64,000 bases of DNA, taken from contig NC_092672.1 of the NCBI RefSeq assembly GCF_964355755.1, forward strand, positions 17,125,237-17,189,236. Direction: 5' to 3'. Shown here one piece after another: positions 4,280 through 33,224 of this stretch. Position 1 is the stretch's first letter. The number at the start of each line of letters is the position of its first letter. Position numbers and translations under genes: made by a program. The DNA is from Antedon mediterranea (Eukaryota; Animalia; Echinodermata). The notes below the pieces were generated by a model. The model saw nothing but the letters and a program-made list of their open reading frames with translations, had not been told where the DNA came from and did not search any database.

Positions 4280-4315
4280 AAAAGAAAAGGAAAAAGAGAA
4301 TCAATTGGTAGCGTA

Positions 4316-5209: not shown

Positions 5210-5553
5210 CTTCCGGTGGCTATGAGGTTCATCATCTGCTGAACGACATTACCGTCGTTTCCATCAATGTGTTCCGGTACCAAATGTCGCCTGTGAGCGC
5301 ACACTGTTCGCGTTCCTTTCTCGAAGCACGCATCGCACAGGTACGACTGAGTAATGTATTTAACCAGTGCACGTCCATCGTGTTTAATATTCACAAACTC
5401 TTGCGACCAGTGATCACTCGAAGTCATCGACGATGTTAAAAGAACCGACACGTTCTTAGGTTGAAAGATTGGCAGAGTTGATAGCATAGCCGTTTGCTTT
5501 ATCCACGGATACTCGTCCATCCATCCCATATCACAACCGGTTCCTCTTGAAGC
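4987..5553 (-). CDS. TRM3: Terminase exon 2 (Walker B, coupling motif, zinc site, first nuclease Asp)
   Basis: Acceptor tttgttttcag|GCT gives ASRGTGCDMGWMDE (Walker B); LLTSS; CDAC..CAH; LLIGVDP; donor CAG|gtaagt at 4986. Confidence 0.9.
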
Positions 5554-5571
5554 CTGAAAACAAAAATAAAG

Positions 5572-6468: not shown

Positions 6469-6736
6469 TACGTTTTCGTTTGTGTTTTTTCTTCTTGATT
6501 ACGTTTTCTTTCTTCAACAACGATTTTGATGATGATGATGATTGTGTCGTTGTTGTTGTTGTTGTTGTTGGTGGTGGTGTTGATGATGATGAATTTACAG
6601 TTGATGTGGTCATGTACCAGAAATTACGTTGAATTAGTTCATCGGCCGATCGACGCCATGACATTTTCTCGTTCTTCTTCTTCTTCTTCTTCTTCACACG
6701 ACGTACGTATATGCGCAACATGTCATTAATGACATA

Positions 6737-9700
6737 ATGGTAAATTCGAAGACAATCATCATCATCATCATGTATACATCATCACAGACCGAAACGTTGA
6801 TGGACACGACGGCTGTTAGACAGAGGCCGACAAAGAGAAAAGGACGGGACGATAATAAAGAGGTTGGCAAACAGTCGAAAAAAATGACGCCGTATCTTGG
6901 ACGAGTTCTCGACGAACTCGCAGACCCGACGCTCACAACAACGACGCTCATGAGAATGGTATCGACTGCTTACAGATCCGGCTACCCTCCAGATGGATCC
7001 ATGCTGGGTCTAAAAGCGCAGCTACTTCGAATGGACGGCTTTTCAAAACAGTTTTCAAACGCGTTCGTTTCTGGTCGCATAGTTGTTGTCGACGCAAAGA
7101 ATCTTAAAAGCTTGTACGAAAGTCTGTGTGAAATAATCAAAATGATTGAAATCATCACAGAAATCAACAAACATGCTGACATGAAAGAGAGAACGCGTAA
7201 ATTGTGCGACAGTTTGTTTCTCGGCGGTAGCTTTCTAAATTCGAAACAAGTTCGGGTCTCAATCGTCATCAAAGACGGTAATCTAATACAACAAAAGATA
7301 CACTTTGCAAAACATCTCAAGACAATGACTGCCGTTCCAGGTATACATTCACAGTCGCCTGTAATAGGCGGTGGCGGCGCAGGAAAAGAGAAATCGTTTC
7401 TACAGCTGGGAAAGTTTCAGGCCGGCAATAGACTGACAATGAAAGATTTTTTTCTGAAACACTACACATCTACGCAAGGTAACAATTCCAGCGATCGTGA
7501 TGCTCTCTTCAACGAAACCGGATTAAGTAAAGATGATTTCGAGAGATTGTTGAAAGCGTGTACGCACATTCAAAACGTGGAAATCGGAACCACGTTTCGA
7601 TTGATGAAATACGTGTGCGCGCTGTTCGACAAAAGACCGAATCTGTACATGATTTTCGCTTGCCTCGTACTACATCGCATAGTTCATCACATCGGCGATG
7701 CTACACTGCTCGCCAGAGCCGACATGTGGAATCTCGTGTTGGGACAGAGTGAAGAGATCACAAACAGTTGGAACTTTGAAAGAATCGACGCGGAAATCAC
7801 GGCAGCTGAGAGTAAATGGAACGCGGCACATGCTCCGTGGTTGACCGTTGACTCGGCGGAACGTCCCACCGTCGAATGGATCAGAAAGTTGGCAAAAAAG
7901 ATACAAGAGGACTTTGCGCCATACGAAAGAAATGCTTTGGACATTGACTTTGACCATTTGTTTGGTGCGCTCGTGTCGTACATTAAAAAACACGAATTTC
8001 TCAAGATTCGTCTAAGAGATCATGCACTCGTTACTGGAACGATCGACGAACTTAAACCGTTTCAATGTGAACGACCTCCGTTCGGAACGCCCACTGCACA
8101 AGATGACATGCCATGGAGAGACTGTTGCCATTACGAGGCGAACGTATGTGCTATTCTACTCAACGCTCTTTGCAATATACCGGTTAGATCTCCTGAATCA
8201 ACGCGCAAGATTTCACTCGACACGGCCACCGAAGGCATGGCAATGGTCGAACAAAGTCGGTTCGAAATAACGCAACTCAGTTACCAACATCTGCTAAGTT
8301 TGGAGGCTAAAGCGCGTGAACGTGCCGCCAACATCACTACTACCGATTCTGAATCTCGTATGCCGGTGATGAACACAGAATCTGCTGATAATATGTCGGT
8401 GGTGCAGCAGCAGGTGAACACCGAAACTGTTGACGACGACGACGAGGCGCGTACTACAAACGCATCAGATACGCTTTCTGTTCTCGAACCTCTGGTCATC
8501 ATGGAAGGTATGCCGGCAAATACCACCCAAGACACACTACTTTCTGTGCTTGAATCTGGTACGACGCCGGCGGTGATGAACACCGAAACTGCTGACGCGC
8601 TTACTACTCACACCGATGATGCAATTTCTGTGCTCGAATCTATTGACATAGCAAGCATGCCGGCAAACACCACCCAAGACACACTTTCTGTGCTCGAATC
8701 GGGTACGACGCCGGCGGTGATGAACACCGAAACGCGTACACACACCGATGATACAATTTCTGTGCTCGAATCTATTGCCATAGCAAGCATGCCGGTGAAC
8801 ACCGCAATTGTACACGAAGAAGAAGAAGAAGAAGAAGAAGAAGAAGAAAAAGAAGGTGACGGTGATGATGATTTACCTAGCATCGGTCAACTGCTCGCTC
8901 CTTACGTGAACACGGCCAACAGCATCTTACCTTCAACAAACGACGATTTGCCCATCTTGGACGAAGACACCGTTCAAAGATTGCGTGAAATCTCGGACGA
9001 TGTGAACGCTCACAATAGTACAATGCACGTAAAACTCTACGATATTGAAGATTGGATATCATCTCAGCCCGATTCTAATGCCGAATCCCAATCGCAGATT
9101 GAAGTCATGCAATGGACAAAGGCAAAAGCCGAAGAAGAACGACGGACGGCTTTGAACACGCTCGAGACTCAACGAGTAGAACACGAAGAGTTCAAGAAGA
9201 CCATGGCCACCAGGAATGCAGAGTCGACGAGAGAAAATGAAAAAAAGACGCGAGTGAGCGACGCAAAAATTAAAGAGTTGGAAACGAAACTGGACAAGAC
9301 CGAAGGCGAACTGCGAAACAGTAAACGTTTGGTGGACGAAATGAAGCAACAACTTCACGACACCGAAATGCAAAATGTCGACGAGTCAGACACTCTAAAA
9401 GCCTTGCTTAACAAAAAGACGGACGAAGCACGTGCACATGAATTGATTTTGAAGCGCAAGCAATCCGAATTGATATCGTCAAAAGAACACGTTGACGAGC
9501 AGACGAGTCGTCGCATCGAAGCGCTCACAAACGAAGTTGGTGAATTGCGCGTGCTGAACAGAAGATTGGACACGGCCAACACGCTTTCGGAGACAACGTA
9601 CAGGCAGCGAATTCAACAGTTGGAAACTGATTTGCAAACGTACGAAGAAAAGAGCAGATTGTATCAGTCGAGCGTACAAAAAAATGAACAGTTGATGAGC

Positions 9701-11803
9701 CGACATGTTGACGATTTGGCGTCGCAACTTGATGCCGAAAAAATAAACTCTGCTTCGTTAAAACATGATGCAGAGAACATGTTAAAATCTCGAGAGCAGG
9801 CGTATTTGACCGATCTGAGAAAATTGAACAATGAGCTGCAAAACGAGAAGAAAAACGTACAGAAACTCGGTCGTGACTTGCAACAGACCACCGATTCGGC
9901 GCATCTGCAAAGAGAACAACTCAACAATAAACTGATGAACGCAAACACGACGTTCACCATCAAGCTGGACGAAATGAGAAGGGAGATTGAAGAACAGGAC
10001 AAGAGGCAAAACTCGGTTCAACACGAAAAGAATCTAGATACGGTTCAACACGAAAAGAATCTAGATGATTTGAAACAAACTCTTGTCGAGACCGAACAGA
10101 AGGTAGCGCAACTGAAACGAGATGGCGACGAAAAAATAGATGAATGGAAGAAACGTGTTGAAGAAGTGAAGATGGAGCGTGACAAAGCAGCTCAACATCG
10201 TGTCCTGTTGGAAAGACAGGTTCGAGAGTTGACGAGCAAAGCTGCAGAGGACAATTTCACTCGAAAACGTTTAGAAGAGCGACTGAAAAAGTCAATCGAG
10301 ACACACGCCGAGTACGTGTCGGAAGCTAAACAGAGCACGAAGAAAGAGACTGAAAAGAAGATGCTCGACATGTTGACACAGGCCGAGAAACAGCACACGC
10401 GGGAACGTGACGAGGAACGTGATCGACTCGAAAAACAACTGAAATCTGAAGTAACTAAACTAGGACAAAAACACGACGCAGAGATGAAACGTGTCGCGAA
10501 AGAACACAGCACTGCTATACAGCGACAGTTGACGTCGGCAGCGAACGCGTCGAGCAATCACAAAACAGAATTGAAGTCGACAATACGTGATCTAGAAGAA
10601 GCGCGAAAAGCTCGTGACTCGTTGTGTACGCAAAACGCTAAACTTCAAGAGAAGTTTACTGCCAAGGAAAAAAGTTTAGCTGAAACACATCGGTTATCCG
10701 ACGACAAGAATAAAGAAATATCCTCTCTTGCCGCTCAGGTAATTATTTTAAAAAATCACAGCTTGACTGCACAAAAGCGCATCGAAAGTCTCGAAAAGGA
10801 ATTGGAACATTCGCAGCGAAAAGTATCCGAATCCTATCTGAAACTGTCTGAATTCATAAAGAATCAAAGCGACGGAGGCGGTGGAGGAGGAGGAGATGGT
10901 GGATCTGATGTGTTACATGAAAGAATGAAAGATATCGAAGCGTCATTGGAGCAAGAAAAGCGCCAAAATCTATATAAAGATGGACAGATTGCACATTTGA
11001 AGTCTGATGTTAAATTTTTAACTAGTAAAGTTGAAACTGCAAACAGCGAACGAGAACGACAGGTTGCAAACTTACAACGGAAACTTTTCAATAAAAAACG
11101 TACGTCGCATTCGTTATATACGTTACATCATGATGAAGATGAAGAGGATAAAGTGGAGGAGGAAGAGATATACGATGAAGCTGAGTACAATCATGACTAT
11201 TACGGTGATGAACATGATGATGATAATGAGCATAATGGTGGCAATGAGGATGATGATGAATACAAAATACAATTTGTTGTCGATTACAGTCCAAGTAATA
11301 CGTCCTATCATCAGTTATTCGGAACCGGAGAGTTTACTTTCAACGAAGTGATTAATCAAGCAAGACATTACATCAATTCCACCGATGATGAAGATGTATC
11401 AACAGTAGAAGCAGCAGCAAAATTGACCGACAGATGTGGCTCGACATATTTTGCGCCTATGGTCGTACGCAAAGGCAATGTAACCGAAGGCGATAGAACT
11501 GTAATGAAAGTGATTTCGTTCATGGGAAAAATACCGGGCGTGACATTGGTAAAACCGAGTCAAAGTAGCGTTCCTATTTGTTTTCTTGCGTCAGACAATT
11601 CGTGCAAGTATCGCCGTAGAGGTGATGCACGATACGTAATTTTTGGCAAGGATATGCGTATAGATTGGTCGGAGAAAGATTGGTATGTACAATTGGTCGG
11701 ACGTATTCTCGAAAACAATCTTAGACACAATCCAAAGGTAATCACTGCAGCACCATGTTTGACCCAACAGACGATCCAGTTACCAGCTCCGATAACTTTC
11801 TAA
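6737..11803 (+). CDS. Large coiled-coil protein (tegument-like), 1688 aa
   Basis: Long intact ORF; E/K/Q/L-rich heptad region at about aa 790-1450; internal repeats; acidic tracts; inside terminase intron 1. Confidence 0.75.
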   Translation: MVNSKTIIIIIMYTSSQTETLMDTTAVRQRPTKRKGRDDNKEVGKQSKKMTPYLGRVLDELADPTLTTTTLMRMVSTAYRSGYPPDGSMLGLKAQLLRMDGFSKQFSNAFVSGRIVVVDAKNLKSLYESLCEIIKMIEIITEINKHADMKERTRKLCDSLFLGGSFLNSKQVRVSIVIKDGNLIQQKIHFAKHLKTMTAVPGIHSQSPVIGGGGAGKEKSFLQLGKFQAGNRLTMKDFFLKHYTSTQGNNSSDRDALFNETGLSKDDFERLLKACTHIQNVEIGTTFRLMKYVCALFDKRPNLYMIFACLVLHRIVHHIGDATLLARADMWNLVLGQSEEITNSWNFERIDAEITAAESKWNAAHAPWLTVDSAERPTVEWIRKLAKKIQEDFAPYERNALDIDFDHLFGALVSYIKKHEFLKIRLRDHALVTGTIDELKPFQCERPPFGTPTAQDDMPWRDCCHYEANVCAILLNALCNIPVRSPESTRKISLDTATEGMAMVEQSRFEITQLSYQHLLSLEAKARERAANITTTDSESRMPVMNTESADNMSVVQQQVNTETVDDDDEARTTNASDTLSVLEPLVIMEGMPANTTQDTLLSVLESGTTPAVMNTETADALTTHTDDAISVLESIDIASMPANTTQDTLSVLESGTTPAVMNTETRTHTDDTISVLESIAIASMPVNTAIVHEEEEEEEEEEEKEGDGDDDLPSIGQLLAPYVNTANSILPSTNDDLPILDEDTVQRLREISDDVNAHNSTMHVKLYDIEDWISSQPDSNAESQSQIEVMQWTKAKAEEERRTALNTLETQRVEHEEFKKTMATRNAESTRENEKKTRVSDAKIKELETKLDKTEGELRNSKRLVDEMKQQLHDTEMQNVDESDTLKALLNKKTDEARAHELILKRKQSELISSKEHVDEQTSRRIEALTNEVGELRVLNRRLDTANTLSETTYRQRIQQLETDLQTYEEKSRLYQSSVQKNEQLMSRHVDDLASQLDAEKINSASLKHDAENMLKSREQAYLTDLRKLNNELQNEKKNVQKLGRDLQQTTDSAHLQREQLNNKLMNANTTFTIKLDEMRREIEEQDKRQNSVQHEKNLDTVQHEKNLDDLKQTLVETEQKVAQLKRDGDEKIDEWKKRVEEVKMERDKAAQHRVLLERQVRELTSKAAEDNFTRKRLEERLKKSIETHAEYVSEAKQSTKKETEKKMLDMLTQAEKQHTRERDEERDRLEKQLKSEVTKLGQKHDAEMKRVAKEHSTAIQRQLTSAANASSNHKTELKSTIRDLEEARKARDSLCTQNAKLQEKFTAKEKSLAETHRLSDDKNKEISSLAAQVIILKNHSLTAQKRIESLEKELEHSQRKVSESYLKLSEFIKNQSDGGGGGGGDGGSDVLHERMKDIEASLEQEKRQNLYKDGQIAHLKSDVKFLTSKVETANSERERQVANLQRKLFNKKRTSHSLYTLHHDEDEEDKVEEEEIYDEAEYNHDYYGDEHDDDNEHNGGNEDDDEYKIQFVVDYSPSNTSYHQLFGTGEFTFNEVINQARHYINSTDDEDVSTVEAAAKLTDRCGSTYFAPMVVRKGNVTEGDRTVMKVISFMGKIPGVTLVKPSQSSVPICFLASDNSCKYRRRGDARYVIFGKDMRIDWSEKDWYVQLVGRILENNLRHNPKVITAAPCLTQQTIQLPAPITF
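8368..8810 (+). repeat. In-frame internal repeats in the 1688-aa protein
   Basis: MPANTTQDTL(L)SVLESGTTPAVMNTET occurs twice, and SVLE(S/P) five times. Confidence 0.85.
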
Positions 11804-11913
11804 TCCTAATCAATCTTCTCTTGACCAATCTAATAGCGAATACTCGTCGACATGAGCAGAAGAAGGAGAAGAAGGAAGAGGAGAGACAACTGATTACCTC
11901 CATATTTTAGATT

Positions 11914-12506
11914 ATGTCGTTTGATTTATGGAAAAGTTTAGAGTCACGCGTTGAACGTAGATGGATAGAATGGTCTCATCATCATCATCATCATCATCAC
12001 GACGACGACGACGAAGAAGAAGAAGAAGACAACGCTTACTTGAAAGAATTGTTGAAGGAATTCAAAGGAAATTTGGAGAGTATATGTACCAAAAAAGGCG
12101 ATGAACAAGATGTTCTCTATTACGCACGATGCATTGCGCTCATCGAACGTCTCTTGTTCGACACAACCACGATAACGTCCGAGTGTTGTACAATGGCCGA
12201 CATGGACAGTATATTGAAACGCAATGTTCTCTTTGCCTGGACCAATGTGCACTCTTTCAAAATTCTCGAAAGATTATCAACAATTTGGAGATTTGTGACT
12301 GTAATGGGAACCGTACCGGCAATGCCGATCGGATGCTGTCCCATTGTCGGCTACAAATGTTTTTGGTGTAGAATTAAAGATGAAAACCTTACAGATGAGT
12401 GTCATCATCTTGTCACTACCGTATTCAGCGAAACAACAGAACAAACAGCAAAAAAAGAAGAGACATCACTCGTTGTATTTCCACTTCCAGCATCATCATC
12501 ACCGCC

Positions 12507-12559
<53 letters not shown>

Positions 12560-13401
12560 TATCAACATCAAATTATTACGATGAGTTTGGTTTTGCCAAA
12601 CGCATCGATAAACGAGTCAAGAATGCCGTTGAAAAACTTAGAATTGAAATCGAGAAAGAAATTCGATATGTAGAATCGTGCGTTAGCTATACGTTGTTGC
12701 CAAAAACAATTAGTCTCGAGTGTACGGCATCGATTGCAAAACTGTTGTGTTTTGCCGAACGCCGTCGGTGCATGGCGTCCAAGCAGTACGCGTGTTTCGA
12801 GCATTGTAATCTTGATGTTTGGAGTAGAAACCTGCTCGAGTGTATGTTGGCGAATCCGGACAGACACGATGAACGCAGAGCGGCAACGTGTACATTTTTT
12901 CGTCTCGTTGTCGATCCAAGTACGGTGGTCGATCCGGCAATCATTGGACACGAAACGGCGTTCAGGAAATGGATGGAGGCGTGTGACGTGGACGTGGAAA
13001 GAGTCTGTGACTACGTGAATGGATTGAAAAAAATGACACCGACAACAGAAATAAATAAAAATGATCAAGTTACAAGCATGTACAAATGTTTATTAATTTG
13101 GCACATGTTCTCGTCCATGCCCGTATCGGGAGGTGGTCCGTTAACGATCCATCGATGCGATCTTGACGGAATGCCAAGCGCAGACGGACTTTGTTTTCTT
13201 TACGATGACAGACGTTTTCTTGTTAAACGCGCTGATCGTGTACTCAATTTCACCTATGAACGTGCTGTAGAGTCATGCGTGGCCTGGATACGGTACGGTA
13301 CGCTATCGATGAATTCACCCACTGTGAGGCGTGTACTGTTCCATACTGGCTTCGATGACGATCGACATGATATCCCCAAACATGATGGCCAGACGCGATG
13401 A
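11914..13401 (+). CDS. Hypothetical Cys-rich viral protein, 495 aa
   Basis: Long intact ORF with the same codon style as its neighbours; in-frame poly-H/D/E/P/S tracts. Confidence 0.65.
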
Positions 13402-13716
13402 CATTTGCGACACGATAATGTTCTGCACTCTGTAATCGATTCCCATCATTACCGTCATGCGAAGTAAAGTCTCTGTCATGAACATGAGTCTACCCCGGCC
13501 ACCGCCGTAGTAACTCGAATAGTATCTGATGAGAGGATATTTCAGTCCACTGTAGAACGTTATGGCAAACAGAATTATATTGGACGTCAACAGTTGCTTG
13601 TAGCTTATCTTCTCCTTATCGTACGTATTCCCTTGCCAGTTGTATTTCGACGTAAGACTGTACAGAACAACGACGAATATCGTAAAAGTCACTATTAACG
13701 GCGCAAATGGTTTCAT
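13315..13716 (-). CDS. Small membrane protein
   Basis: 133 aa from an ATG; two or three hydrophobic segments; divergent from the Snf7-like gene. Confidence 0.45.
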   Translation of the reverse strand: MKPFAPLIVTFTIFVVVLYSLTSKYNWQGNTYDKEKISYKQLLTSNIILFAITFYSGLKYPLIRYYSSYYGGGRGRLMFMTETLLRMTVMMGIDYRVQNIIVSQMSSRLAIMFGDIMSIVIEASMEQYTPHSG

Positions 13717-13753
13717 TGTGCGCTATACTGCCTTATTGCATCAGCACGCAAAC

Positions 13754-14326
13754 ATGTTTGGTAAAAGAAAAAGAAGAGGCGAAGCCATTGAACAAAAACG
13801 AGTAGAATCTATGCGCAACATTGCCGCCATGCAACACACATTCGACGAAAAGACGATGCAAATGCAAGAAAGTATACAGTCAGGTTTGAAGAATGGAATT
13901 GATGCGAAAATGCTGTCGTCGTTGATCAGACGAAAGTCGAATTATGAACGAATGTTGACCACGTCTCAGAACGCCATGTTAAAGTTGGAGAAAGATGCAC
14001 TTTCGTCTAAATTACGAACGTTTGACAGGCTGCAATACGATCGACTCAAGGAGGAAGATTACTCTCTCAGAAAATCAGAGAAGAGCATGAATCCCAATAG
14101 GATATGTTCACTTTTAGGAAGCGTTAACAACAGACGACTTAGACACAATACTGCAATGGATTCAATTCGAGGATTGTTGGACGATGATGATGATGATGAT
14201 AGCAGCGATGAGGACGAATTGAATGATGATGACAATACATTGGCACGTGAGCTCGTCGACCGAGAGATTTGTAATAAACTTGTCAACTTGCCCGAACCAC
14301 CTAATCGCTCAAAAGTACCTTCTTGA
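13754..14326 (+). CDS. Snf7/CHMP4-like ESCRT-III protein
   Basis: 190 aa; basic N-half and acidic C-half; MFGKRK start, LIRRKSNYERML...LKLE, SMNPNRICSLL, DEDEL..LAREL and a C-terminal LPEPP, colinear with the Snf7 family pattern. Confidence 0.65.
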   Translation: MFGKRKRRGEAIEQKRVESMRNIAAMQHTFDEKTMQMQESIQSGLKNGIDAKMLSSLIRRKSNYERMLTTSQNAMLKLEKDALSSKLRTFDRLQYDRLKEEDYSLRKSEKSMNPNRICSLLGSVNNRRLRHNTAMDSIRGLLDDDDDDDSSDEDELNDDDNTLARELVDREICNKLVNLPEPPNRSKVPS

Positions 14327-14347
14327 TAATAATAAAAAAAAAAATAT

Positions 14348-15451
14348 CTAAAGAACAAATTTGTCTTCTTCTTCTTCTTCTTCTTCTTCTTCTTGTATAC
14401 GTTTACACGTTACGCACATTGTTCGAGAAGTTATCTCACTGCAAGTAGGGCACGAACGCATCATTGCCAAATCGGGCTGTTTAACTGTCAATCGTACACC
14501 GGCACCGTCCAACGACAGAGAAGCCAATCTTCTCGAATGACAGTTGTAACAGGTGGGTAAGAGAGAATTCTCGTCGATATACATCCCTTTTGTCGGTGGC
14601 CTGTTCTTCAGATCTACGTAAGTTAAAATTATATAACAGTAGCGACAAAAAACAATCGATTCTGATCCAAATGCCGCTGGATTGTGATCGTAAAAGAATT
14701 CTATCTGAGAGCATCGTTTCTGAACAAACATTATGCTCTTCATCTCGGATAGTTCATCTTTGCTTAATAACGACAGCGCTTGAGTTATGAGCGAAACAGA
14801 GTATTTCTCATTGCGCGTTTTGTTTAAAAGTAGAACGCATTCTACCAGTGCATTTGATCGATTCGGTATGGCAAACATTAGATTGAACGGCCAACTGGAC
14901 TTTGTAAACTCCAAAATTGTTTTCATCATCGGATGCAACGGTTTTCTTTTCACATGATTCAATTGGAACAGAATGCATTTGAGAATGGCCGAATCGTGTA
15001 TTCTGTCGGTTAAGGGCACCACAAATGATGACCGTTTTCGCGTCTGGTGGTGGTGGTGGTGGTGGTGGTGGTTGTTGCGTCGGCGACGACGATCAGCTTG
15101 CATCCATTGCATTAACTCATCAAAATTTGTTATGTAGGCAGCAATGTGTCTGTGATACGGCCGAGCGAGTGTATCGAGAAAATAGTAGACGAACGCCGTT
15201 TTGGGCGTCATGCTATCATCATCATCATCACCACCACCACCACCGATAGATACGGCCGCATCGAAATGACGTCGCTGTTGCTCGTTGCATCGTTCCAGTT
15301 TATTTTTGTACGATGTTTTCGATGCTGTGCCAATGCAGGCGCCTATCAAATTGACAAGTTTCACGTGATGGCTGGTGGTGATGATGGACGTGTTTTTGAA
15401 AATGTACGTTAAACCGGCAAGGAACGTTGGATAGGCCTCGGAGCGACTCAT
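14348..15451 (-). CDS. Zinc-binding protein, UL49/ORF66/VLTF2-like candidate
   Basis: 367 aa; four C-terminal CxxC pairs (CRYC, CYNCHS..L..L.L, CPTC, CVTC); sits in terminase intron 1 on the same strand. Family call is tentative. Confidence 0.5.
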   Translation of the reverse strand: MSRSEAYPTFLAGLTYIFKNTSIITTSHHVKLVNLIGACIGTASKTSYKNKLERCNEQQRRHFDAAVSIGGGGGDDDDDSMTPKTAFVYYFLDTLARPYHRHIAAYITNFDELMQWMQADRRRRRNNHHHHHHHHQTRKRSSFVVPLTDRIHDSAILKCILFQLNHVKRKPLHPMMKTILEFTKSSWPFNLMFAIPNRSNALVECVLLLNKTRNEKYSVSLITQALSLLSKDELSEMKSIMFVQKRCSQIEFFYDHNPAAFGSESIVFCRYCYIILTYVDLKNRPPTKGMYIDENSLLPTCYNCHSRRLASLSLDGAGVRLTVKQPDLAMMRSCPTCSEITSRTMCVTCKRIQEEEEEEEEEDKFVL

Positions 15452-15483
15452 GATGCAAAAAAAATAAAAACAACAATACTCAC

Positions 15484-16179
15484 GTTTGCCGTGTTTGCTT
15501 TGCTTCTAAAGTTTGCCGTCGTGCCCGTAGACTGCAACACTTGTACTCCATCCGGAACACCTTTGAACGTGAACGCGTATCGTCGTTGAGCCATCTCCAA
15601 TAGACGAATGACGTCTTCTCGATTGGTACGCGCGCAGTTCAAATCCTGAGCCCAGTTAACGACGGATATACTATTTTCGTGTACAAGAAGAGATGCCACC
15701 ACAAGTTGACCGGCGCGATTCTTGCCGCTACGTCGAGGCACTCTGACAACCGTAAACTTTCTATTGAATTCGTCTATCTTTCTAGCGGCAGAATGTCGTA
15801 CGGCCGGATGCCATCGAGCCGGTTCGGTCATCGACTGTGCCTCCTCGTCGGACAGTACGCCGAGTATGCAAAGTGATGGAATTCTCAGCTTCGACGCTCG
15901 ATCTCCAAACACTTTGTTGAATCGTCCAGCTATGACAGCGTTACACATTTCCTTCTGAAACGGCTCTAATCGTATGTTACTTTGGCGACACAGAAACTCT
16001 AGAGTTGACTTGACGTTGCTTACGAACGTTAGACATTTTTTGTCCATGTCCGCCGTTGCTGCATTATTGTCGGCAACGCATTCACTCAACGGTTTCAGGA
16101 CGCATAATCCAAACGAATGGCGCTTTCGTTCTTCTATTCTATTGCATATGGTACGCATTTGTCGCTGGTGGGAAATCAT
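15484..16179 (-). CDS. TRM3: Terminase exon 1 (adenine-binding Q motif, Walker A)
   Basis: RLEPFQKE and VVRVPRRSGKN (herpes PRRHGKT); ends ANTAN|gtgagt, a phase-0 donor at 15483. Spliced product is 598 aa from ATG 16179. Confidence 0.9.
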
Positions 16180-16280
16180 CTTCTCTTCCTCTTTTTTTTT
16201 TTCCACGTGGATCACGTCAATGCACGAAAAGAAAAAAGTTATTAACGTTTAAACGACATGTCTTTAACAATTAACAAACG

Positions 16281-17586
16281 ATGATGATGATGTTGTTGTT
16301 TATGTTTCTATTTTTTTTAAATTGCGATGGCAAGGTGATACGTCACGGAAAGCCATACGGTCAACTTGCGAACGGTAACAGAACGCTGATATGTTCAAGC
16401 GAGAGTATGTTTAACATAGAACGAAACGGAGAGTTTGCGTGTCCAAACTCGGAGGGAGAATACGAGGTGCTGGACATGATAACAACCGACAGACAAAGTA
16501 ACGTTACCGTTTTATTTGACGATGAGTCGACGTTCAACGTGGACCTTAACACTAGACTGGAATTTGATTTGTCTGCAAACAAAAGCAAGGTCGACTATCG
16601 ACAGCAGATGTCTGCGTCGTTTTACATTAAATTGAACGAATCGAGAGATGGGCAAATTCTGTACAGCAACAGTGACAAAGATTACATGTTTATACGAATT
16701 TTGGACAGTCGACTGGCTGCCACATTTGATCTTGGCTCGAAACCGTTGACGGTGGTGAGTCGAGAGAACGTTTTAGTTGGAAAATGGTATCATTTCACCG
16801 TTAAACGAGTTGGATCGTGGGCCAGAATCGTAACAAACGGTCTGTTCGGACCTTGGTCGAGTGTACACGGAAACTACACTCGCCTCGACACAAACAATCT
16901 GTACGGCATAGGTGCGTCCGACACGTTCCCATCGGTGAGCGCGTGTCTCGCTTTGTTCCAGTTCAACGGTAAACGCCTCTTACCGCAGAATCTGAAGACG
17001 TGCAAAGTAACTGAGCATCAGCAGCAGCAACGAGAACGTGGCGCTACTGCAACGCAATCTGTTAGCAGGGCAAATTTACTAAAGGGTGAACGTGCATTTC
17101 ACTTATCTTACGCCGTTTCTACTACTTTTCAATGGCCTAGTGACGTCGACTATCAGGACAGAGTGTTCTTATCGTTTTACATAAAACTAAACAAAGACGC
17201 CGATGGACAGATTCTGTACAGCAGTGGCAACGAGGATTATATGTTTTTGGGTATCGTCGACGGTCGATTGAACGCTACATTTAACATGGGTTCTGGATCG
17301 CTGACAGTTGTCAGCGATCATGTGCTCGTTGTCGAAAATTGGTATCATTTCGACGTTTCCAGAATCGGTAATCAGGCTAGAATTGATTCGGATTTCAACG
17401 TCGGTGGCTGGACAAAGCTGAACGATACGATGGGCGGTACCAGCCTCGATTTGAACGGTACATTTCATTTGGGCAGTACCAATAGAACACAGTCGATAAC
17501 CGGTTGCATAGCATCCTTTCAGTTTAATGGATGGTTACTGCAACCCAACACGGTTACAGACTGCACATTCAACAAAAATGATGATG

Positions 17587-17617
<31 letters not shown>

Positions 17618-19481
17618 AAACGCACGGGCAACGACAGCAGATCATACGGTTTCATTGATCGGCGATTGGAAGATGAAGTTGACGAACGATTCTTGTTATG
17701 CATTCGATATCGATCCGTACGACCTGTACACGTTCAATGAAACGGTGAACGTAAAATTCTTGTTGAAACTCACGAAAAAAGAAGACGGACAAATCATGTA
17801 TTCCAACGTGGTGAACAACGCCGAAGCGTTCGGACCGTCCGTCTTGATAGAAGACGGCCATTTAGTCGTAGAGTTGCGTAGCCGCGGCTCTTCGGCAACA
17901 GCAAAGTCGAAAACGGCTCGACTTAGCAGCATCGAAAAACTTGCGATACGAGAATGGTACCAGGTGTTGATAAAACGGAAAGGAAATCAAGTGTACTTGT
18001 CGTTGAATACGGCCTTTGACGAATGGGCACAAGTGACGAAAAGGTTTACGCCCAACGATGTGGTGACAACGCTTAAGGTGGGCGCAAGTGATACTTTAAA
18101 GTCGATTGTAGGTACAGTGACAATGTTGAAAGTAAACAATCTTCAATTACAACCGAGTATAGCCGAAACGTGTACACACGATGATGATGTCGTCGACGAG
18201 GATACGTTCATGACGACACCGTCTGCACCGCCACTCGAGTCTGCATTCAGAATTGACTTGAAAAAGAAATCTTGTCGTTCCTTCACCGTTCCCACTTTGA
18301 ATCGTATAGAAAACACAATGGTCATCGAATTCTACATTAAACTGGATACGGTGGACGAAAAACGACAAATACTACTGTATGAATACAGTGCCGACGTACG
18401 AATGTCAATTGTTGTCGTACCGGGAGGACGATTGAAGTTCAGTTTTGTGTCTTTGTCGCGTATGACTGTCATCAAAAACATCGGACGAATGACGCAGGGT
18501 ACTTGGTATCAATACACTCTCGAATTGGTCATGGGGTTTGTACGCTTGTCTTCAAACTCGAAGGTGGTTAGTCGATGGCAACGGCTACCGTCTGAATTTA
18601 AGTCCCCTTACCGACAGGATGGTGTGTTTATAATTGGCGCAAACAATCGTTTACCGTCGATCGATGGAACTATCGCCGATTTCACCATCAACGGATGGAC
18701 GATGGATTCTTTGAATCTTCGCACTGATTGCAACGACGGCCCGGCCGTCGTTGACAAAATTGAGCCAGAGAATATGATTTTACGCGACGTAGACACCAGG
18801 ATAGACTATCAATTATGGTACGAACCGTCGTCATTGAAAAGTTTCTTTTTGAATCAAACAGACTGCGTCAAGCTTACAACACCGCCGTTGATGATCGATA
18901 AAGCGTCAGTCTCTTTTTACTTTATATCGCTAAGAAATTCCGGCAACATTTTAAGCTATCAGAGTGATACGACAAATTTTAACGCGCGACTCGTTGACAA
19001 TTATCTACACGTTATATTCAAATCACCTTCCGGCCTTCGTGTTCAGATTATAAGCACGCAACAGTACATCACGAATACATGGGCGTATGTTGAAGTTTAC
19101 AGAAATAGACTGTACGTTCGATGTAAGTTCTCCGGTTACATACAAGAAGAAAAGTTACCCACCGACGAGTTCAACACCGTTTCAACTACAAAGAATGCGA
19201 CTACAGTGATTGTCGGAAAGGTAGACGAAGAAAGTAATTCTATAACCGGTGTCATAGCCGCTCTGTACATAAACAAGGCATTATACAAAGTGCAGGATGC
19301 TTATTCGTGCATCATCGACATACCTACCACCACCACCACCACTACAGCAGCAGCAGCAACGAATACCTCTATACACTCGTCTGACCAACTGCGTGGTGCG
19401 TCATCCACCTCCTCCTCCGGTTATAACATTTCATCGAAAATATTATGTTTATCTCTGTTGTTGTTGTTCATATTTCAATAA
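16281..19481 (+). CDS. Secreted, probably GPI-anchored protein with about five laminin-G domains
   Basis: Signal peptide; repeated SFYIKL..DGQILYS..DYMF..I.DGRL.ATF..GS...WYHF...R.G..A...G.S....GC motifs; Thr/Ser stalk and a hydrophobic C-terminal tail with no cytoplasmic domain; intronless. Confidence 0.85.
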
Positions 19482-19582
19482 TAAATATTATGTACAATAT
19501 AATATCTCTCATCGTCGTCGTCATTACTTGCAATGATAACATAGAAACACCAATTTTTTAAACTTTTTTTTTTATTACTATA

Positions 19583-20268
19583 CTACCAACATCGTGATCC
19601 GCCATAGGCAATAATGGCGATAGTTATATACATATCGTTCAACAAATCTCCAATTGAGCCTATCAAATTTACGTTATTTTCTGATATGAAATCTAGATGT
19701 TCCAACTCGATAAAGAGCTCAAACGAATTGTTTATCCGTTTTATGTGTTTTCTTGGCATGTAGCTTTTCAGAAGATTCTTCAATTCATTCACTTGCTCTT
19801 TATCAATATTTGAAGCAATATCAACAAGCATACGTCTAGATGAAAATAGATAAAATAATAATAATAAGATTCTGCTGACCATATTAAAAAAACAAACAAA
19901 AAACAAAAGAAAAAAAAAACCAAATATCAATATTAAACTTACCTATACCGTGAGATGATAGGCATCGCTTTTTTCTGCAAGTATCGTTCTACTCTACACG
20001 CCATTTCAATCTCGCCTATATTACCCAGCAGTTCTTCGAGTAAGTTTAAGTTCATTTTTGATACTTTCTTCATGCCTTCAAGACGAGAAACTAATTCAAT
20101 GAATGAAGAGATTTCATCAAATTCTTCATAGCGAAGACCGATCGTTTTATCGAGACATAAGTATTTGAGTTTACAGACATCAGTTTTTGTCAGTGCACTG
20201 TCTAGTTCGACAATCAATTTGCTATAGGTTGCGTCAGTAAATGTCTTGCTATCGTTACCTGCACCCAT
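19583..20268 (-). CDS. vFLIP: vFLIP-like tandem death-effector-domain protein, two exons (20268-19943, 19835-19583), 192 aa
   Basis: DED1 YSKLIVELDSALTKTDVCKLKYLCLD...LLEELL; donor AG|gtaagt and acceptor catctag|A join ISRYR-RMLVDIAS in frame; DED2 ELKNLL..FELFIELEHLDFISENNV; no caspase domain. Confidence 0.85.
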
Positions 20269-20465
20269 GGTGAACAAATATAAACTGACTGATTTTCTCT
20301 CTCTCTCTTAAGTAGTCGAAAGTGGCCATAGCAGCTGCAGTTGTCATTGTTTTCGTTTGTATACTGTTTGTGATGACGAAAGTTATGACAAAACGGTTGT
20401 GATCGATGACGAAAGTTATGACAAAACGGTTGTATTCGATGTATTAGTTCTGAAAAGAACTGTTG

Positions 20466-20516
20466 AGTTTCTCGACGTTTCGATCAATATGCTTTGATCG
20501 TCTTCAGGAGTGAGAA
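20466..20516 (-). ncRNA. Minimal hammerhead-ribozyme-like motif of the Penelope type
   Basis: Minus strand reads ctc-CTGAAGA-c-GATCAA agcata TTGATC-GAAAC-GTC-gag: conserved core, a 6-bp stem II and a short stem I. Confidence 0.6.
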
Positions 20517-20769
20517 TGCAGAAAGTCGAGGAAACTTGGAATATAAGTGGAAAGGGTGGGACTGGTGTGAAAGCCAGAAACAATGGCAAGTTCACACAAT
20601 GGGAGGGATTGAAACTGGCTGTTTCTCATGAACAATAGTGAAGTGTTTCTGATAGGTGTGAAAAGCAAGATGAGACAAGCTAAAAACAATAGCATTGTCT
20701 CAAAGTTGGGTGTAGACTGGCCAAAACATAGACCATGTGACAAAGTTCGTCTAAACCCGGTCACTGCTG

Positions 20770-21235
20770 ATATTATATGATAATTGTTTTATTCCTTTCC
20801 AATTTTTTCGAGAAAAGATGTATCCCATTTTCTCCATCACACTAAACAGCTCAATTGAATTCTCAAAAAAATTCTGCTGTTGGTAATTCGCCTTTTAGAA
20901 ACCGCTTTAAAATATTCATGTCACTCTCTCCCATTTCAGATGCAATATGAATTGTCATACGTCTGTGGGGTAAACGAGAAAGATTTTTTTTTTGTAAGGT
21001 GAGACGTAATCTGTTGTTGTTGCATACTGTTTTATTTTAGCAGCCATACACCCATGTCCTATCAACTCAAATAGTTCTATAAGCAATCCTAGCTTCTTTT
21101 TTTTTGTTACAACAAATCTCGTTTCTAAAGTCTGTAAAATATATCGTTTGCCTTTTTCATATTCTCCAATTCTCCACGATGTAGACCGATATCTGGACAT
21201 ACAAGAATCATTGCTGAACTTGAGCGGATGCAAAC
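20770..21235 (-). pseudogene. Degenerate second vFLIP/tandem-DED paralogue
   Basis: LETRFVVTKKKKLGLLIELFELIGHGCMAAKIKQY...VSPY, then acceptor cacag|A and RMTIHIASEMGESDMNILKRFLKG..NSIELFSVMEKMGYI; frameshifted and the donor is lost. Confidence 0.7.
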
Positions 21236-22953: not shown

Positions 22954-23017
22954 CATACAACATGCGACGAATGCACGACATGTTATGCCTCTTCATTTGA
23001 TTGCGTGCCCGGATCAG
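22954..23017 (-). repeat. Solo, inverted, diverged copy of the 43-56 kb array core
   Basis: atacaacatgcgacgaatgcacgacatgttatgcctctt..tgattgc is the reverse complement of gcaatcaataagaggcataacatgccgtgcattcgtcgcctgttgtat, with a few changes. Confidence 0.8.
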
Positions 23018-23372
23018 CCTAATCATGATCTAGAGTAGAAGTGAATTATGTTAACAGATTGTGTGCTCAAAATAATCCATTAATCAACATAATTATGCAA
23101 TTTTTTAATTGTTGTATTTTATATATGAAAATGATAATAAAATTGAAAGAAATTAAAGCGTAATCTTTATTCGTATTCATTGTTTAAGTGTGTACATAAT
23201 AACTAATGGTATCTTGAACTTTAAAGGCTGTTTTCTAATTGTTGATAATCTATTGAATTCGGAAGTAATCTATTGAATTTGGAAGTGCTTTGTTGAAATC
23301 GGGTCATATCTTAATTGTCTTGAAAGAAATTATAAAGCAAGTTAAATATTTTTTTGGAAAGTTTTAAAGAAT
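23017..23372 (+). repeat. Left arm of a ~350-bp dispersed inverted repeat
   Basis: Reverse complement of 36901-37327, for example gcctaatcatgatctagagtagaagtg versus cacttctactctagatcatgattaggc. Confidence 0.9.
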
Positions 23373-23851
23373 ACAGAATACATACAGAATACAGAAATTT
23401 ATTGGTCCAAAAGGAAATTCGTTTCGTTGTTAACAAGCTCTCAAACAATTAATTGAAAATATATAAAAAGTCATGAATACAAAAATACAAGATCTTATAA
23501 AAATACGAATAAACATCAAAAAGACAAGAATATAAAAGATATATATCGTAACATATAAGATGTATAAAAATATATATATATATATATTAACAGTATTATA
23601 TACAGATATTATATAGATTAATGTAGATTAATATTATTATAATAATACATTTTTTTTTTTTTTAAATTTCAACTCCTTTTGTAGGTGACACGACCCATAT
23701 GTACTTGAGTTTACAAACGTCGTAATTATTCAATTGATTGCTGCAATTCATTAAACATCTGAATGTAGCTTTAATTTGTAAGTGGTGTCATCATGCCAAT
23801 GTCAATAATGCAATTTTAAACATTTGGACGCACATAATATTATATACTCGT

Positions 23852-27988: not shown

Positions 27989-28901
27989 CTAAAATAGACG
28001 AGAATTATACACGTTAGTCGATCACTATAATAATAAAAAAAATGTGGCAGCAGTTTTTGTCCAAAGTTTTACTGTAAATTCAATTTTGTATATTATGCCC
28101 CTCTTATGTAATAAACTGTTATAAAGCATGCTTTTTATGGCGAAATGCTTTATTTTAAAGAACCAATAGTTGCAACGGTGGTTTCGAATAATAGTAACTA
28201 TGGACATAAAGTGTGTTTTCAACGCGCTTTTATTTTTTACGCTAACCAAAGCCTTTGTTGTTAAGGTTTTGCACGCTTGACTGAACGCGAGAGCCCAGCG
28301 AACATCGCAGAGATAGCGATAATTACTAAGCTAGTAAATTAAACGTTACAATCATAATATAAAATATTAACAACAAATAATAATATTTACAAGTAAATAT
28401 ATTAGTTTTACAACAAGCAATGAAGTAATACTTCAAATTATGCAATATTAATTCAGTTATTAGTAAAAATAGTACGACTGTTTTAACGACCGCCGTACTC
28501 GATAGAATTGTAAATAAATAGCGCCCTCAATAAAAAGCGCAAAGTACAGTAGTAGTCACTTCACCGAAAAACTGACTGTTCAACGATCATTTTCAATATT
28601 TATTCTTTCACCGTTTAAGTTTTCGTTTTGACGTAAAAAACTGGTTAGAGGCTCTACACACCTGGTAAATAAGACTACTTTTTTTTAAACTCTAATGACA
28701 ATTGATGTGGGTATTTTGGCATATTAAGATGCCTAGCCAGAGAGAGAGAGAAACACTGAACTATACCTGTACTGTTCATAAAACTTTATTTACATTATCA
28801 TTTTACTGTATTTCATTGTATTATTTGTGTTGTGTAAATAAATTGCTGATTACAAAAATTACATAATTAATTAGGCCTAGGGCCTACAAATAATACTAAT
28901 T

Positions 28902-31900
28902 ATGGATTTCCATTCTGAATCTTTATTAAATATTTGTAGAATTTGTGGAATAAAATTCAAAATTTCTGACTGAAAATATGAACTTAAAAGCATCAAAACA
29001 CAAACTTTAAATTTTCTAAACATTAAAATTGTTGAAGAAGATAAAAATGTTCATCCATCATATGTTTGTCATACTTGTCAATCAGCTGCATACAAACAAA
29101 CGACATTAATTACACCTTACATCTGGAGACAACATGATGATTTACAGTGCACAGCTTGTTATCTTTATGAAAATCAACAGAAACAAGGTCACAGGATAAA
29201 ATTCAATAAAAAAACTTTCATGCAAGATTTAAAATTCAATTCATTAACTGAGCAATTCACCCTTTATGACCAATCAGCACTGTCTTTGTTTCAATGTTCT
29301 ATTTGTAAACATATTCTGTCGCTTGATAATGCAGAAACTCAGTGTTCCCACCATTTTTGTATGTACTGTCTCTGTCAATTGTTCTGTACTCTTCGACTAC
29401 ATACATTCCCCATGTTTTGCCTGTGCGTCACCGATAACATTTGAACGTGACATGAAAAAAACCATCATTACTGGTACAACAATCTTTGCAAACGGTTGAA
29501 TTGCAATGTCGGTTGTGTGGGAAATGTCTGAAGTATAACTAGTGCAGTCAGCATAAATGCACAACAGAGGCTGAGCAACGGTATAATGCTGTAACCAATG
29601 CAATTAAGACCATAAACAAAGAAATTGTTGGCGAGAAGATACCCGAACCTGTCCAGCAATTTGCAAGGAAGTTGGTATCCAAATCACTAAAAAAAAAAAA
29701 AAAAATTGAGTTACCAACAAATAGAAGGGTGAGTTATTTTTTTTTAGAAAGCCAACATTTTTCACAAAACCACTGTACCAAAGTACAGAGATTTTATTGA
29801 ATAATGGGCAAATCAAATGAACCTAAAAATTATATATAATAGTATATATATTTTAGACATATTTTTAAAAACTGACTATCAATGCAGGGTGTTTTGTTAC
29901 CGAATTTATTGGAATAAACTACCCTACCACACAATATTGTATTAAAACACATTCCCTGAACATGAATAAATAAGGTATTAAACTTTGACAATAAATCTTG
30001 TAAATATAAAACATATAAGAATGTTTTACTTACAGCCAATGACAATTACTACTATGACAAAAAGCTACAAAATCCAGCAGTTGTGTTGGCAAAAGAACCC
30101 TCAGTTGACGCACCCATGAATTATCAACCATACGAAATTCAATATCGCATGATTCAGCTCAACTTCAATTTAATCATAAAATGCAATCTAACTTGCCACC
30201 AATTGGTATCATTGATGATGTTGACAGGTCACTGGCCATCAAAGCTGACTGCGATCTTACTTGGCAACAAATTCTGAAACTAAGAAGGCAAGTATGAAAA
30301 TTAAGAAAATAGTGGTGCATAAAATAATATATCAACATTTTAATTAGCTGTATTTTAAAATGTCATTTTACAATTGTTATTCTAAATTCTATTCAAGATA
30401 TGTGAAACCAGGTGTTATAGCATCAGAAGGCAAAATGCGAGATCACCAATTGGATATTGTAGATGGATACTTACATGGTTCCATGGATGAATTCATCTTA
30501 AAAAGCGATGCAGCAAATGCTGAGAATGCATTTGTAATATTTTCTGGCCCCTGTTTTGCCAGTGATTAATATTGAGAGGTTGATGTTTTCCTACTTGGAC
30601 CACCATCATGAGTAAATAACATGCTTATTTTACATTTTGTAACTCCAAATTTATGCAAACAATAAAATACAATATTGTATATTTCACTTACAGATTAAAC
30701 AATCTAAAGTTCTACAACAAAGAAGTATGGATCAAATTTTTGGAGGTGACAAAGGAGGTGGCAGTAGGAAATTTGAACTGCAAATTTGCAGTCTAGAGAA
30801 ACCAAATGCCCTTCGCAACATTATTGTTATTCTAATGTTTGAGTCAGCAGATTATACCATCAACATCAGCAGGGTATTTCCGGATGTATGCGAAGAAACT
30901 GAATGGAGGTATGTCTTCAACATTAAAATCATTTTAATTTTTAAAAAACAATCTTTTTTTGTGTGCTGTATTAATTTTAATTTTTTTTTTCCTTTAAGGG
31001 GCCACAAAATTCGTCTCTTTTTCTTTGGAGACTAGGAGTTTTTGTCAGGGATGTATGGCCTCAATGGACCAAATGGTAAGACACAGTATCTTATTTAATA
31101 TGCATTTAATGTGAATTATAATTTATTGTATACAAACCTTAATTGTTATTTCAAATCTTTCATTAGGAAGGTACTGCAGTCTCTTTTGCCATCATACCAA
31201 ACATCAGATATGCAGAGGTGATGTTCCAAAAGACCACAGGTCTATTATAAAGACATTGAATGAAGACTATCAATTATTTGAAGATCATGGAATGGTAAAC
31301 TCCAAGGAGGTATACAGGAGTGTAATCAGAAAAACAATGGTGCCTATTGACATCAACCATGTAGGAAATATCGCACTTATCAATTGTGTGACTTACCATA
31401 TGACCCCCGGTAGAAGTGCATCATTTGTCCAATGTGCATCCTTTAGGTGACCATGACACACATTATGGAGAATGATAAAATGAAACACCATTGTTCATTG
31501 ATGTCTACTATCATCCTTTCTACTACAACACCATGATGATGCTGCTCACCAATTTGTATCATAATACAGTCCGACACTTGTACAAGTACTGAAATAATAA
31601 AGTAATAGTACTAATATAAAATCTTGAGGTTACATTTGAAAATGTGTTATTATTGCAGGTATCTGTACCAAGCCTCCATATTTCTTTAGGAGTGTTTAAG
31701 AAATTATATGACCTGTTAGAAAATGAAATGCACACATTGGATTCAGAGATCTTCAGGTTAAGGCAAAAAAAATTCCGATGGAGGTGTCAATAATTTCGAC
31801 AAAATTACTGTAGAGCAGGCTGCAACAAATTCAGCATTGATGAAGCACATCTCAGATATGCAAGCACAAATTTCCCACCTAGAAGATGAAATTCCGCTTG

Positions 31901-32990
31901 TATTTTTAAACTGCAAATCAGAAGCATCAGCATCTGATTCTGTAAAGACACAAATTATGAGTATTGCTGAAAAGCAACAAGAAATCAAAGACATGGCATG
32001 TTAAGTACGAATAGTATTACACATACATATACTGCATTCTGAATGCATAATTAATTATTCAAAAGTAGTTTACACAGATTATGTATTTTTTTTAGGAAAC
32101 AAAATTGAACAAAGGTTTGAAATAGGGCACTGGGCCAATTGTTTGTGCAATGGAGGAAGTTCTCCAAACAAAACAAGGTTCCTAGTCAAGCCTATCATGG
32201 GAAGGCCTTTGTAGGCAATCATGTACACAAGTGTTGCCAGGTGATTATAAAAATAAACAATACACCATCTACTTAAGATAGTATACAGTTTAAATTTAAT
32301 GACAATACTATTATTAAAAAACTAAGTGTTGTATGTTGCAATGTTTGAATATTTACCCAATTGACAATATTGTTCACAGGTTGATATTATTCACCAGCTA
32401 ACATCTGCATCAAACCAGGTTCTAGAGGAACAAAGCTCAGATATCCCAATTGGATTTCTTGAAAAATTGCAATCACAATTGATTTATACACCTATCTTCC
32501 ACCAATTTTCAGACATACACAAGGCAATCAACCATACCAATGCAATGACTGAGAATGAAATTGATATTGTTGGTAAGAAAAAAAAAAAAAAATCTGAATT
32601 GAGTTTCTATCACTCAGCTGCTTATTAAAGAATTAATTAAATTTATATATTAATTTACTTACAGCTTCAAATATATCAGACTTCATGTCCAACTGCAGAA
32701 AATTGGAGATCAACATATCTCCAAAATTGCACATGCTCGAATTTCATGTTGTGGAATTTTTAAAGTGATGGCATGTTGGAATCAGCTTGTTAAATGAGCA
32801 GGTGGGTGAACTTATTCACTGGTCATTTAACCAAAAAAAAAAAAGAAGTCTGTATGGTGTAAAGTCAGTTCTGGCAAAAACAATGTCAGTGATGAAGAAT
32901 CACTTAATCTTCACACAACCTGAAGTACAAGCAAAAATAAAACATGCTGTGAAAAGGAAGCACAGTATGCATTTTAAATACCATCAGTAA
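28902..32990 (+). pseudogene. Chapaev-like transposase with RAG1-type N-terminal zinc domain and RING finger; multi-exon, with stops and frameshifts
   Basis: MDFHSESLLNICRICG..DKNVHPSYVCHTC..WRQH..CTAC; RING FQCSICKHIL..CSHHFC; core GGDKGGGS, FFFGD, VPSLHISLG, YHGKAFVGNHVHK, SPKLHMLEFHV, NEQVGELIH. Confidence 0.85.
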
Positions 32991-33224
32991 ACCTTTGATG
33001 ATTTTGTAGAAATAATAGTATTATCAACATATTTGTTTTTGTTTGCAGATGCAGAACAGTAGATGGTTGAAGTGCTGCTATGTCAACAAACTGTTGCAAT
33101 ATTGGAAATATCTGTATAAACAAAATTTAGTTAGGTGTGCTTGCATACATTTATGCAGAGCAGTAGATGATTGAAGTGCTGCTATGTCAACTAACTGTAG
33201 ACAACATCCTACATTTCTTTTTTC

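Follow-up and report, generated by a model that had tools for sequence, protein, structure and literature searches.

A gene on the reverse strand at positions 19583–20268 of the window (here the whole 64,000-nt stretch of Antedon mediterranea DNA that was analysed) encodes a 192-aa protein of two tandem DEDs without a protease. The explanation we favour, with a probability of about 0.62, is that it is a two-DED protein of a viral element, captured as DNA from crinoid caspase-8 and serving as a caspase-8 decoy. The gene would have been taken up as genomic DNA from the crinoid caspase-8 gene and would thereby have kept the intron at the border between DED1 and DED2. Its product, a DED pair lacking the protease, would join the FADD/caspase-8 DED assemblies of the host in place of procaspase-8, and such a decoy would block caspase-8 activation and cell suicide in the manner of c-FLIP(S), MC159 and E8. 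As the architecture is that of a vFLIP, the RxDL motif is missing and the best trees lend no support to common descent with vertebrate vFLIPs, we use the name "independent vFLIP analogue". On balance we lean towards regarding it as the first non-vertebrate vFLIP, made by a crinoid herpes-like virus that trimmed a host caspase-8 down to the exons for the DEDs, the animals concerned being without c-FLIP, alongside intron-bearing Bcl-2, death-domain and dispanin captures. Each ingredient has a precedent, and it is the combination and the host that are new.

Exon 1 (19943–20268, reverse strand; 326 nt, 3' end TAT AG) begins with an ATG at 20268 and covers DED1, the linker and the first two bases of Arg109. 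It is followed by a phase-2 GT-AG intron of 107 nt (19836–19942, reverse strand) with a GTAAGT donor, a T-rich body and the acceptor TTTTCATCTAG at 19836. Exon 2 (19583–19835, reverse strand; 253 nt including the stop) carries DED2 with modelled helices H107–188 and a short tail, and a match to the AATAAA polyadenylation signal is located 7 nt past the stop (19571–19576, reverse strand). The intron length is no multiple of 3, so that DED1 and DED2 share a frame only after its removal, and the split codon is AG|A for Arg109 with the peptide ISRYR|RML across the joint. The two DEDs and the 107-nt intron splitting this Arg had been claimed in the first-pass annotation; the coordinates are exact, and both exons are recognized by Pfam as DED (E 9.8e-13 and 5.5e-13), each alone above the curated cut-off (48.6 and 49.4 bits vs 35.9), while the spliced 192-aa product shows two Pfam DED stretches with E 1.8e-26. 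NCBI has the identical spliced protein under the accession XP_071959865.1 with the name "caspase-8-like [Antedon mediterranea]", encoded on a contig of 26 Mb; this is a gene model, which does not prove a transcript. A joint across the intron is absent from the 15 listed of 26 contig joints, and run X9, which is RNA by guess only, leaves the bin 19614–20014 uncovered and counts neither way. Judging from the sequence, the DED gene is almost certainly a real spliced gene, and it should be spliced in vivo.

A caspase exon further downstream would have pointed to a host gene, as the same annotation remarked, and within the window there is none: the stop codon is followed by AATAAA and then by a converging laminin-G gene. 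Six full caspase-8-like proteins match DED and death-domain stretches only, no caspase motif is found in a coding frame in a six-frame motif scan of the window, and the DED gene lacks the peptidase C14 domain with QACxG that is the hallmark of caspase-8. The product has the vFLIP architecture of two tandem DEDs with no caspase or caspase-like domain. An AlphaFold2 model built on a 35-sequence alignment has a pLDDT of 93.9 and two complete helical DED bundles (from the single sequence the pLDDT is only 38.7). With this model the top Foldseek matches are caspase-8/c-FLIP DED assemblies (TM 0.80, 21–24% identity), followed by the vFLIPs of KSHV, molluscum, BoHV-4 and EHV-2 (TM 0.62–0.72, 14–18% identity), and the ESM Atlas assignment is consistent with the reading as a DED pair. 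The E/D-RxDL charge triad is not found in DED1, which has E86-I-E-M89 vs RIDL in the host DED1, and certain canonical DED contacts may therefore be missing. DED2 is likewise without RxDL, as is the DED2 of host caspase-8; that of human caspase-8 carries E-NxSL according to the parts of PMC6233201 available. The hydrophobic pair Y36-L37 is retained in DED1. The residue that aligns with Phe122 of caspase-8 is Asn129, which was considered as a viral filament-terminating change and rejected; the host DED2 already has Pro there and Asn129 is thus no evidence of a viral cap, and in the F122 data of PMC6233201 filaments still form with F122A by itself.

Compared with 1.84 billion proteins, the 192-aa protein has 65 matches with E<=0.001. 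Apart from itself, the best of them is the A. mediterranea caspase-8-like protein XP_071942201.1 (36–38% identity, E 3.4e-27, 36% over 196 columns), which has 617 aa in the order DED-DED-DD-caspase and is encoded on a 40.9-Mb contig, not on the 26-Mb contig of the DED gene. Next come proteins of Anneissia japonica, and the named matches below these are vertebrate caspase-10-like or uncharacterised. No relatives are found in viral or metagenome contigs or in phages, and word-index protein searches return only the 192-aa protein itself or nothing. In a tree of 59 of 75 proteins, those matching over 130 profile columns, the protein groups with the crinoid sequences with support 99/96, and trees of 30 rows chosen from the 59 give this crinoid group 99/97 and 97/96; an insertion after LKYLC is common to the 192-aa protein and the crinoid rows. 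The protein is a long branch and vFLIP sequences were left out of all trees, and an AU test of its placement with a six-row clade holding two named c-FLIPs does not reject that grouping (p 0.055 and 0.072). The comparison with host phylogeny that had been proposed thus nests the protein with crinoid caspase-8s (97–99/96–97). Of the suggested caspase-8/cFLIP donor the caspase-8 part is supported, as closest relative and in the best trees, and the c-FLIP part is the less likely one, with AU values that leave it unrejected; the suggested independent capture, convergent with vertebrate viruses, agrees with the best trees and is qualified by the c-FLIP grouping that the AU test leaves unrejected. 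The accessible text of PMC5668880 describes c-FLIP as vertebrate-specific, and the likely donor in a crinoid is therefore caspase-8 itself; the sequence comparisons likewise make a crinoid caspase-8-type gene, rather than c-FLIP, the likely donor.

The intron of the DED gene is placed as in caspase-8. The first-pass annotation put an intron of caspase-8 at ISAYR|VML, and this is borne out in medaka, where intron 3 of casp8 interrupts Ser-Asp-Tyr-Ar|g-Val-Met-Leu within the codon AG|A in phase 2 (PMC1903365 supplement 3), the identical residue and phase. With medaka as the reference, the gene therefore shows the caspase-8-type structure, in which the Arg that opens DED2 is split by an intron in phase 2, and PMC1903365 calls the sites of human and chicken "mostly coincident" with those of medaka. 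The split Arg is invariant in 35/35 aligned proteins; in human caspase-8 it corresponds to the Arg of ISAYR, and in c-FLIP to that of VSDYR. Resting on the match to medaka, it is highly probable that the intron was inherited from the host gene, and the crinoid caspase-8 gene should then have an intron at this site. Capture as DNA is indicated because the mRNA route would have removed the intron, and the IL-10 genes of OvHV-1 and OvGHV2 keep the five-exon pattern of sheep IL-10 in the sections seen of 10.1101/2025.09.04.674317. PMC8756742 and PMC3196919 yielded nothing on introns.

A second, decayed tandem-DED copy, which the first-pass annotation does not mention, is located directly upstream at 20760–21205 on the same (reverse) strand, with frameshifts and stops over three frames. 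A profile made from six host proteins, with the query left out, detects it in pieces (E 1.7e-6, 3.1e-5 and 0.021), and tblastn matches it with E 4e-5; Pfam recognizes 0/4 of the pieces, which are detectable only with the custom host profile. The copy is about 40% identical in protein to the intact one and retains a phase-2 acceptor (AG ending at 20963) ahead of the R-M start of DED2, with no donor visible. Between the two copies is a high-copy host-type repeat (20440–20725, CpG o/e 0.48), where the bin 20416–20816 reaches a depth of 258,093 in run X1 and 66,969 in X5 with loose contig ends at 20440–20445 and 20725, and the decayed copy ends near this repeat. The DED gene would have been duplicated in tandem after the capture, with subsequent decay of one copy.

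The element around the gene looks like a herpes-like virus of crinoids that has yet to be described, and at least two organisms, perhaps three, carry it. An intronless gene for a laminin-G repeat protein (16281–19481, forward strand, 1066 aa) converges on it 101 nt away; the protein has a signal-peptide-like start and a hydrophobic C-terminus, and is likely a captured adhesion-type surface protein. Further to the left, a terminase ATPase gene on the reverse strand is split into three pieces with GT-AG edges, separated by introns of about 10 kb and 0.9 kb. Exon 1 (15484–16179) has a GTGAGT donor and a Pfam DNA_pack_N match with E 0.12, below the cut-off, and contains VPRRSGK, which we take to be a Walker-A-like motif; the middle exon (4987–5553) has the acceptor TTTTCAG and the donor GTAAGT, and is assigned to terminase clusters in the ESM Atlas (0.96) with no Pfam match; the nuclease exon (3591–4124) has an acceptor and a DNA_pack_C match with E 0.0011, also below the cut-off. 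A UL92-family gene (5572–6468, forward strand; Pfam Herpes_UL92 22.8 bits, cut-off 21) is located inside the first intron on the opposite strand, so that the Herpesvirales feature of a spliced terminase ATPase gene with genes inside its intron is present. The same intron also holds a 1688-aa coiled-coil protein and a Cys-rich 367-aa ORF. UL92 is the only virus-class marker above its curated cut-off and all class markers are weak; PDB sequence searches with the three terminase pieces were blank and the Pfam terminase matches are weak, and the level supported is thus "herpes-like". No HK97 major capsid protein, portal, triplex or family-B polymerase was recognized among 35 ORFs scanned, and a mirusvirus-like placement of the element would be admissible. 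PHROG gave one weak match in 22 proteins, none useful, Rfam gave no match, no telomere repeats are found in the window, and nine other ORFs of the element have no exact sequence in the protein collection.

The coding density is 94% over positions 1–19481, and the CpG o/e ratio is 1.38–1.49 in the gene blocks at 1–19.5, 23.9–27.0, 36.1–36.7 and 38.7–41.4 kb, and 0.27 in a transposon-like stretch at 28.9–33 kb. The DED exons have a ratio of 1.23 (23 CpG seen, 18.7 expected), with a Poisson P of 4.5e-9 against 0.27, 0.0013 against 0.6 and 0.26 against 1.44, and the GC content of the gene is 34–38% vs 41–48% in the core block. The region is present in nine public runs of three organisms, and contigs were compared from 4/9 of them. 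Contig depth, which is no copy number and was compared without a single-copy host control, is for exon 1 and the genes on both sides 817 vs 725–844 in X1 (organism A) and 33 vs 28–42 in X5 (organism B); X8 (organism C), with a depth of 2–5 and 24/30 bins covered, has none over the DED gene and counts neither way. Over 20046–20468 the organism B contig has 19 differing letters and 17 gap letters, and over laminin-G organisms A and B differ in 65 of 1862 letters, the element being a few percent apart. On these data the element looks integrated, common to two organisms and invaded by host repeats. The herpes-like genes are on one side (left) of the DED gene, and viral-type, CpG-rich dense genes on both sides. 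It is very likely that the DED gene is a viral gene, in an element whose ends are not reached by the window, and the viral context claimed for it in the first-pass annotation agrees with its herpes-like neighbours and with the matching CpG and depth. The Bcl-2-like and death-domain genes of the window also speak for a viral gene.

Other origins of the gene were weighed against capture as DNA by the virus. The DED gene could have been captured from mRNA without an intron, and the intron later gained by chance at the same AG|R site. The virus bears introns of its own, the terminase gene holding spliceosomal ones, and parallel intron gain is therefore possible; the junction AG|A is a proto-splice-type site, and two introns of medaka casp8, those at 36/37 and 129/130, are without a counterpart in the DED gene (PMC1903365 supplement 3), extra exons in the first DED being reported for medaka (PMC1903365). 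Yet its sole intron sits on the deeply conserved DED1/DED2 site, a coincidence expected in about 4 in 578 cases with uniform placement (medaka has 4 introns in residues 1–175) and in about 1 in 20 per gained intron if gain is restricted to AG|R sites (20 in 578 positions), and the intron is older than the duplication, its acceptor being shared by the diverged copy upstream, so that a late gain is quite improbable. Somewhat more weight, though still little, is given to a host derivation, either by the first coding exons of a crinoid caspase-8 paralogue brought in after integration, for example by a transposon, or as a short DED-only regulator of the host that is placed here by chance. Host DNA does enter the element (host-type repeats at 20440–20725 and 21.3–23.6 kb, the transposon-like 28.9–33 kb), the GC content of the gene is below that of the core genes, the NCBI name of the protein is caspase-8-like, several paralogues with a DED pair occur in crinoids, among them one that lacks the caspase domain, and the ESM Atlas has an 87-member, 199-aa, mostly echinoderm DED cluster. 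However, the gene shares only 36–38% identity with its nearest host relative and forms a long branch, whereas the element is only a few percent apart between organisms A and B; the CpG ratio of its exons departs from both 0.27 and 0.6 as given above, and it is packed tightly, convergent with the laminin-G gene and with its own AATAAA. Least probable, and very much so, is a silent relic of an endogenised virus with two ORFs that are not spliced together, to which the decay of the neighbouring copy and the host repeat some 170 nt ahead of the ATG, at the expected place of the promoter, would lend themselves. Both exons are open with canonical splice sites and a product model of pLDDT 94, unlike the decayed copy, and silence today would leave the origin of the DED gene unchanged.

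With the captured viral gene as the preferred reading, analogy makes caspase-8 inhibition the probable main role of the 192-aa protein. The portions consulted of PMC11074299 describe c-FLIP entering FADD/caspase-8 DED assemblies in the place of procaspase-8, and those of PMC13233873 the binding of MC159 to FADD and caspase-8. A protein of the same origin might instead have another job, in NF-kB or innate signalling as KSHV K13 via NEMO, or in blocking inflammatory death, and this we hold to be unlikely. MC159 and E8 block Fas apoptosis, whereas K13 leaves it unblocked and activates NF-kB (PMC13233873, in the same portions), RxDL is missing from both DEDs of the 192-aa protein, and its model also matches the vFLIP-IKKgamma structure 3cl3 with TM 0.62. 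But the protein is nearer caspase-8 than K13 in fold and sequence (22% vs 14%), the likely donor is caspase-8, and in amphioxus the prodomain of caspase-8 co-localises with FADD on its own (PMC3196919), and the PYQLT TRAF motif was not found in its sequence, which argues against a signalling role.

The DED gene resembles the vFLIPs (KSHV K13/ORF71, EHV-2 E8, BoHV-4 E2, HVS 71, MC159 and MC160) as virus-associated tandem DEDs with the same fold (TM 0.58–0.72), no caspase domain and a length of about 170–240 aa. It differs from them in the invertebrate host, the identity of only 11–18%, the closest relationship to crinoid caspase-8, the coding intron at the caspase-8 position and the lack of RxDL in either DED; the known vFLIP ORFs are to our knowledge without introns. 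In the passages at hand of PMC13233873 the vFLIPs known so far belong to poxviruses and gammaherpesviruses of vertebrates, and those of KSHV, EHV-2 and SaGHV2 are, like the DED gene, accompanied by a Bcl-2-like gene (10.1101/2025.09.04.674317, parts seen). XP_071942201.1 shares the crinoid insertion and the YR-R-M at the DED1/DED2 border, but has death and caspase domains, keeps RIDL in DED1 and is on another contig. The vertebrate c-FLIP(S) and c-FLIP(R) also consist of two DEDs only and likely follow the same decoy logic, but are splice forms of CFLAR (both from the accessible text of PMC5668880), and c-FLIP is apart from the 192-aa protein in the best trees, with the AU values given above. 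The macavirus IL-10 genes (OvHV-1 Ov1_2.5 and OvGHV2) have the splice pattern of the host and are read as captures from the host genome in the sections seen of 10.1101/2025.09.04.674317; unlike the DED gene they encode a cytokine in five exons, in a mammalian host and with 50–84% to the host protein. Herpes-like DNA in animal chromosomes is described, in the parts consulted of the respective papers, for starfish and ribbon-worm elements (bioRxiv 2025.04.19.649669), BelcheriHV-1 (PMC12373286) and Teratorn; like the Antedon element these have repeat-rich, gene-sparse blocks, and Teratorn carries an Mcl1-like apoptosis inhibitor. No FLIP or crinoid element appears in the passages and term counts of 2025.04.19.649669, PMC12373286 and the Teratorn papers, nor does a FLIP term in what was searched of the Teratorn and AciHV-3 papers (PMC5601938, PMC5822658, PMC12031113). 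Searches of the open-access literature found neither a paper on a herpesvirus of Antedon nor one on a vFLIP that is spliced or comes from an invertebrate, and the supplementary tables of 10.1101/2025.04.19.649669 may list Antedon. In a structure search of BFVD the DED pair also matches U15 of HHV-7 (prob 1.00, TM 0.52, E 0.048), a hint that a roseolovirus has a protein with the death fold.

Viral inhibitors reveal which host pathways are antiviral. A crinoid caspase-8-derived DED decoy, if true, would clearly exemplify convergent evolution and would argue indirectly that signalling by FADD/caspase-8 restricts viruses in echinoderms, with DED-based extrinsic death as an antiviral defence in these animals. 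Chromosomal integration would be a route for gene capture at the DNA level, of which the retained intron would be an invertebrate case beside ovine vIL-10.

Further candidates for anti-death and immune genes are found at the other end of the window. A short Bcl-2-like ORF (41430–41762, reverse strand; Pfam Bcl-2 E 1.2e-4, below the cut-off; CpG o/e 1.25) likely belongs to the same anti-death gene set as the DED gene. Head to head with it is a death-domain gene, the exon of which (42338–42621, forward strand; Pfam Death E 2.5e-10) has an acceptor at 42337 and may be joined to a candidate upstream exon (42001–42229, forward strand) with a donor near 42229, giving a two-exon gene at 42001–42624. 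This death domain shows 29% identity to its counterpart in the caspase-8 of the host (E 2e-5) and 32% identity to a caspase of Asterias, and is possibly a dominant-negative FADD-like decoy. A CD225/dispanin (IFITM-like) gene (57701–58100, reverse strand) has two exons, both above the Pfam cut-off, around a phase-0 GT-AG intron (57984–57890) at YSVD|SSRK. IFITM genes have an intron at the matching site, and if this holds the CD225 intron would be a second retained host intron. Together the Bcl-2-like, death-domain and CD225 genes point to the capture of a larger group of genes against cell death and for immune functions; the death-domain and CD225 genes may lie outside the element.

Some repeats and insertions were also observed. 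Host-type repeats recur at 21.3–23.6 kb, and 28900–33000 is a CpG-depleted, multi-exon transposon-like insert in the element with DUF1280 and a RING-like piece. Two inverted pairs, 23017–23380 / 36893–37327 (78% over 437 nt) and 35160–35295 / 35860–35988 (90% over 136 nt), are possibly the ends of inserted elements. Long arrays of 130–297-nt tandem units and 175-nt units occupy 43100–56600 and 60700–64000, with a CpG o/e of 1.15 over 43.1–56 kb and related sequence inverted at 22.4–23.0 kb, and may be internal or terminal repeats of the virus.
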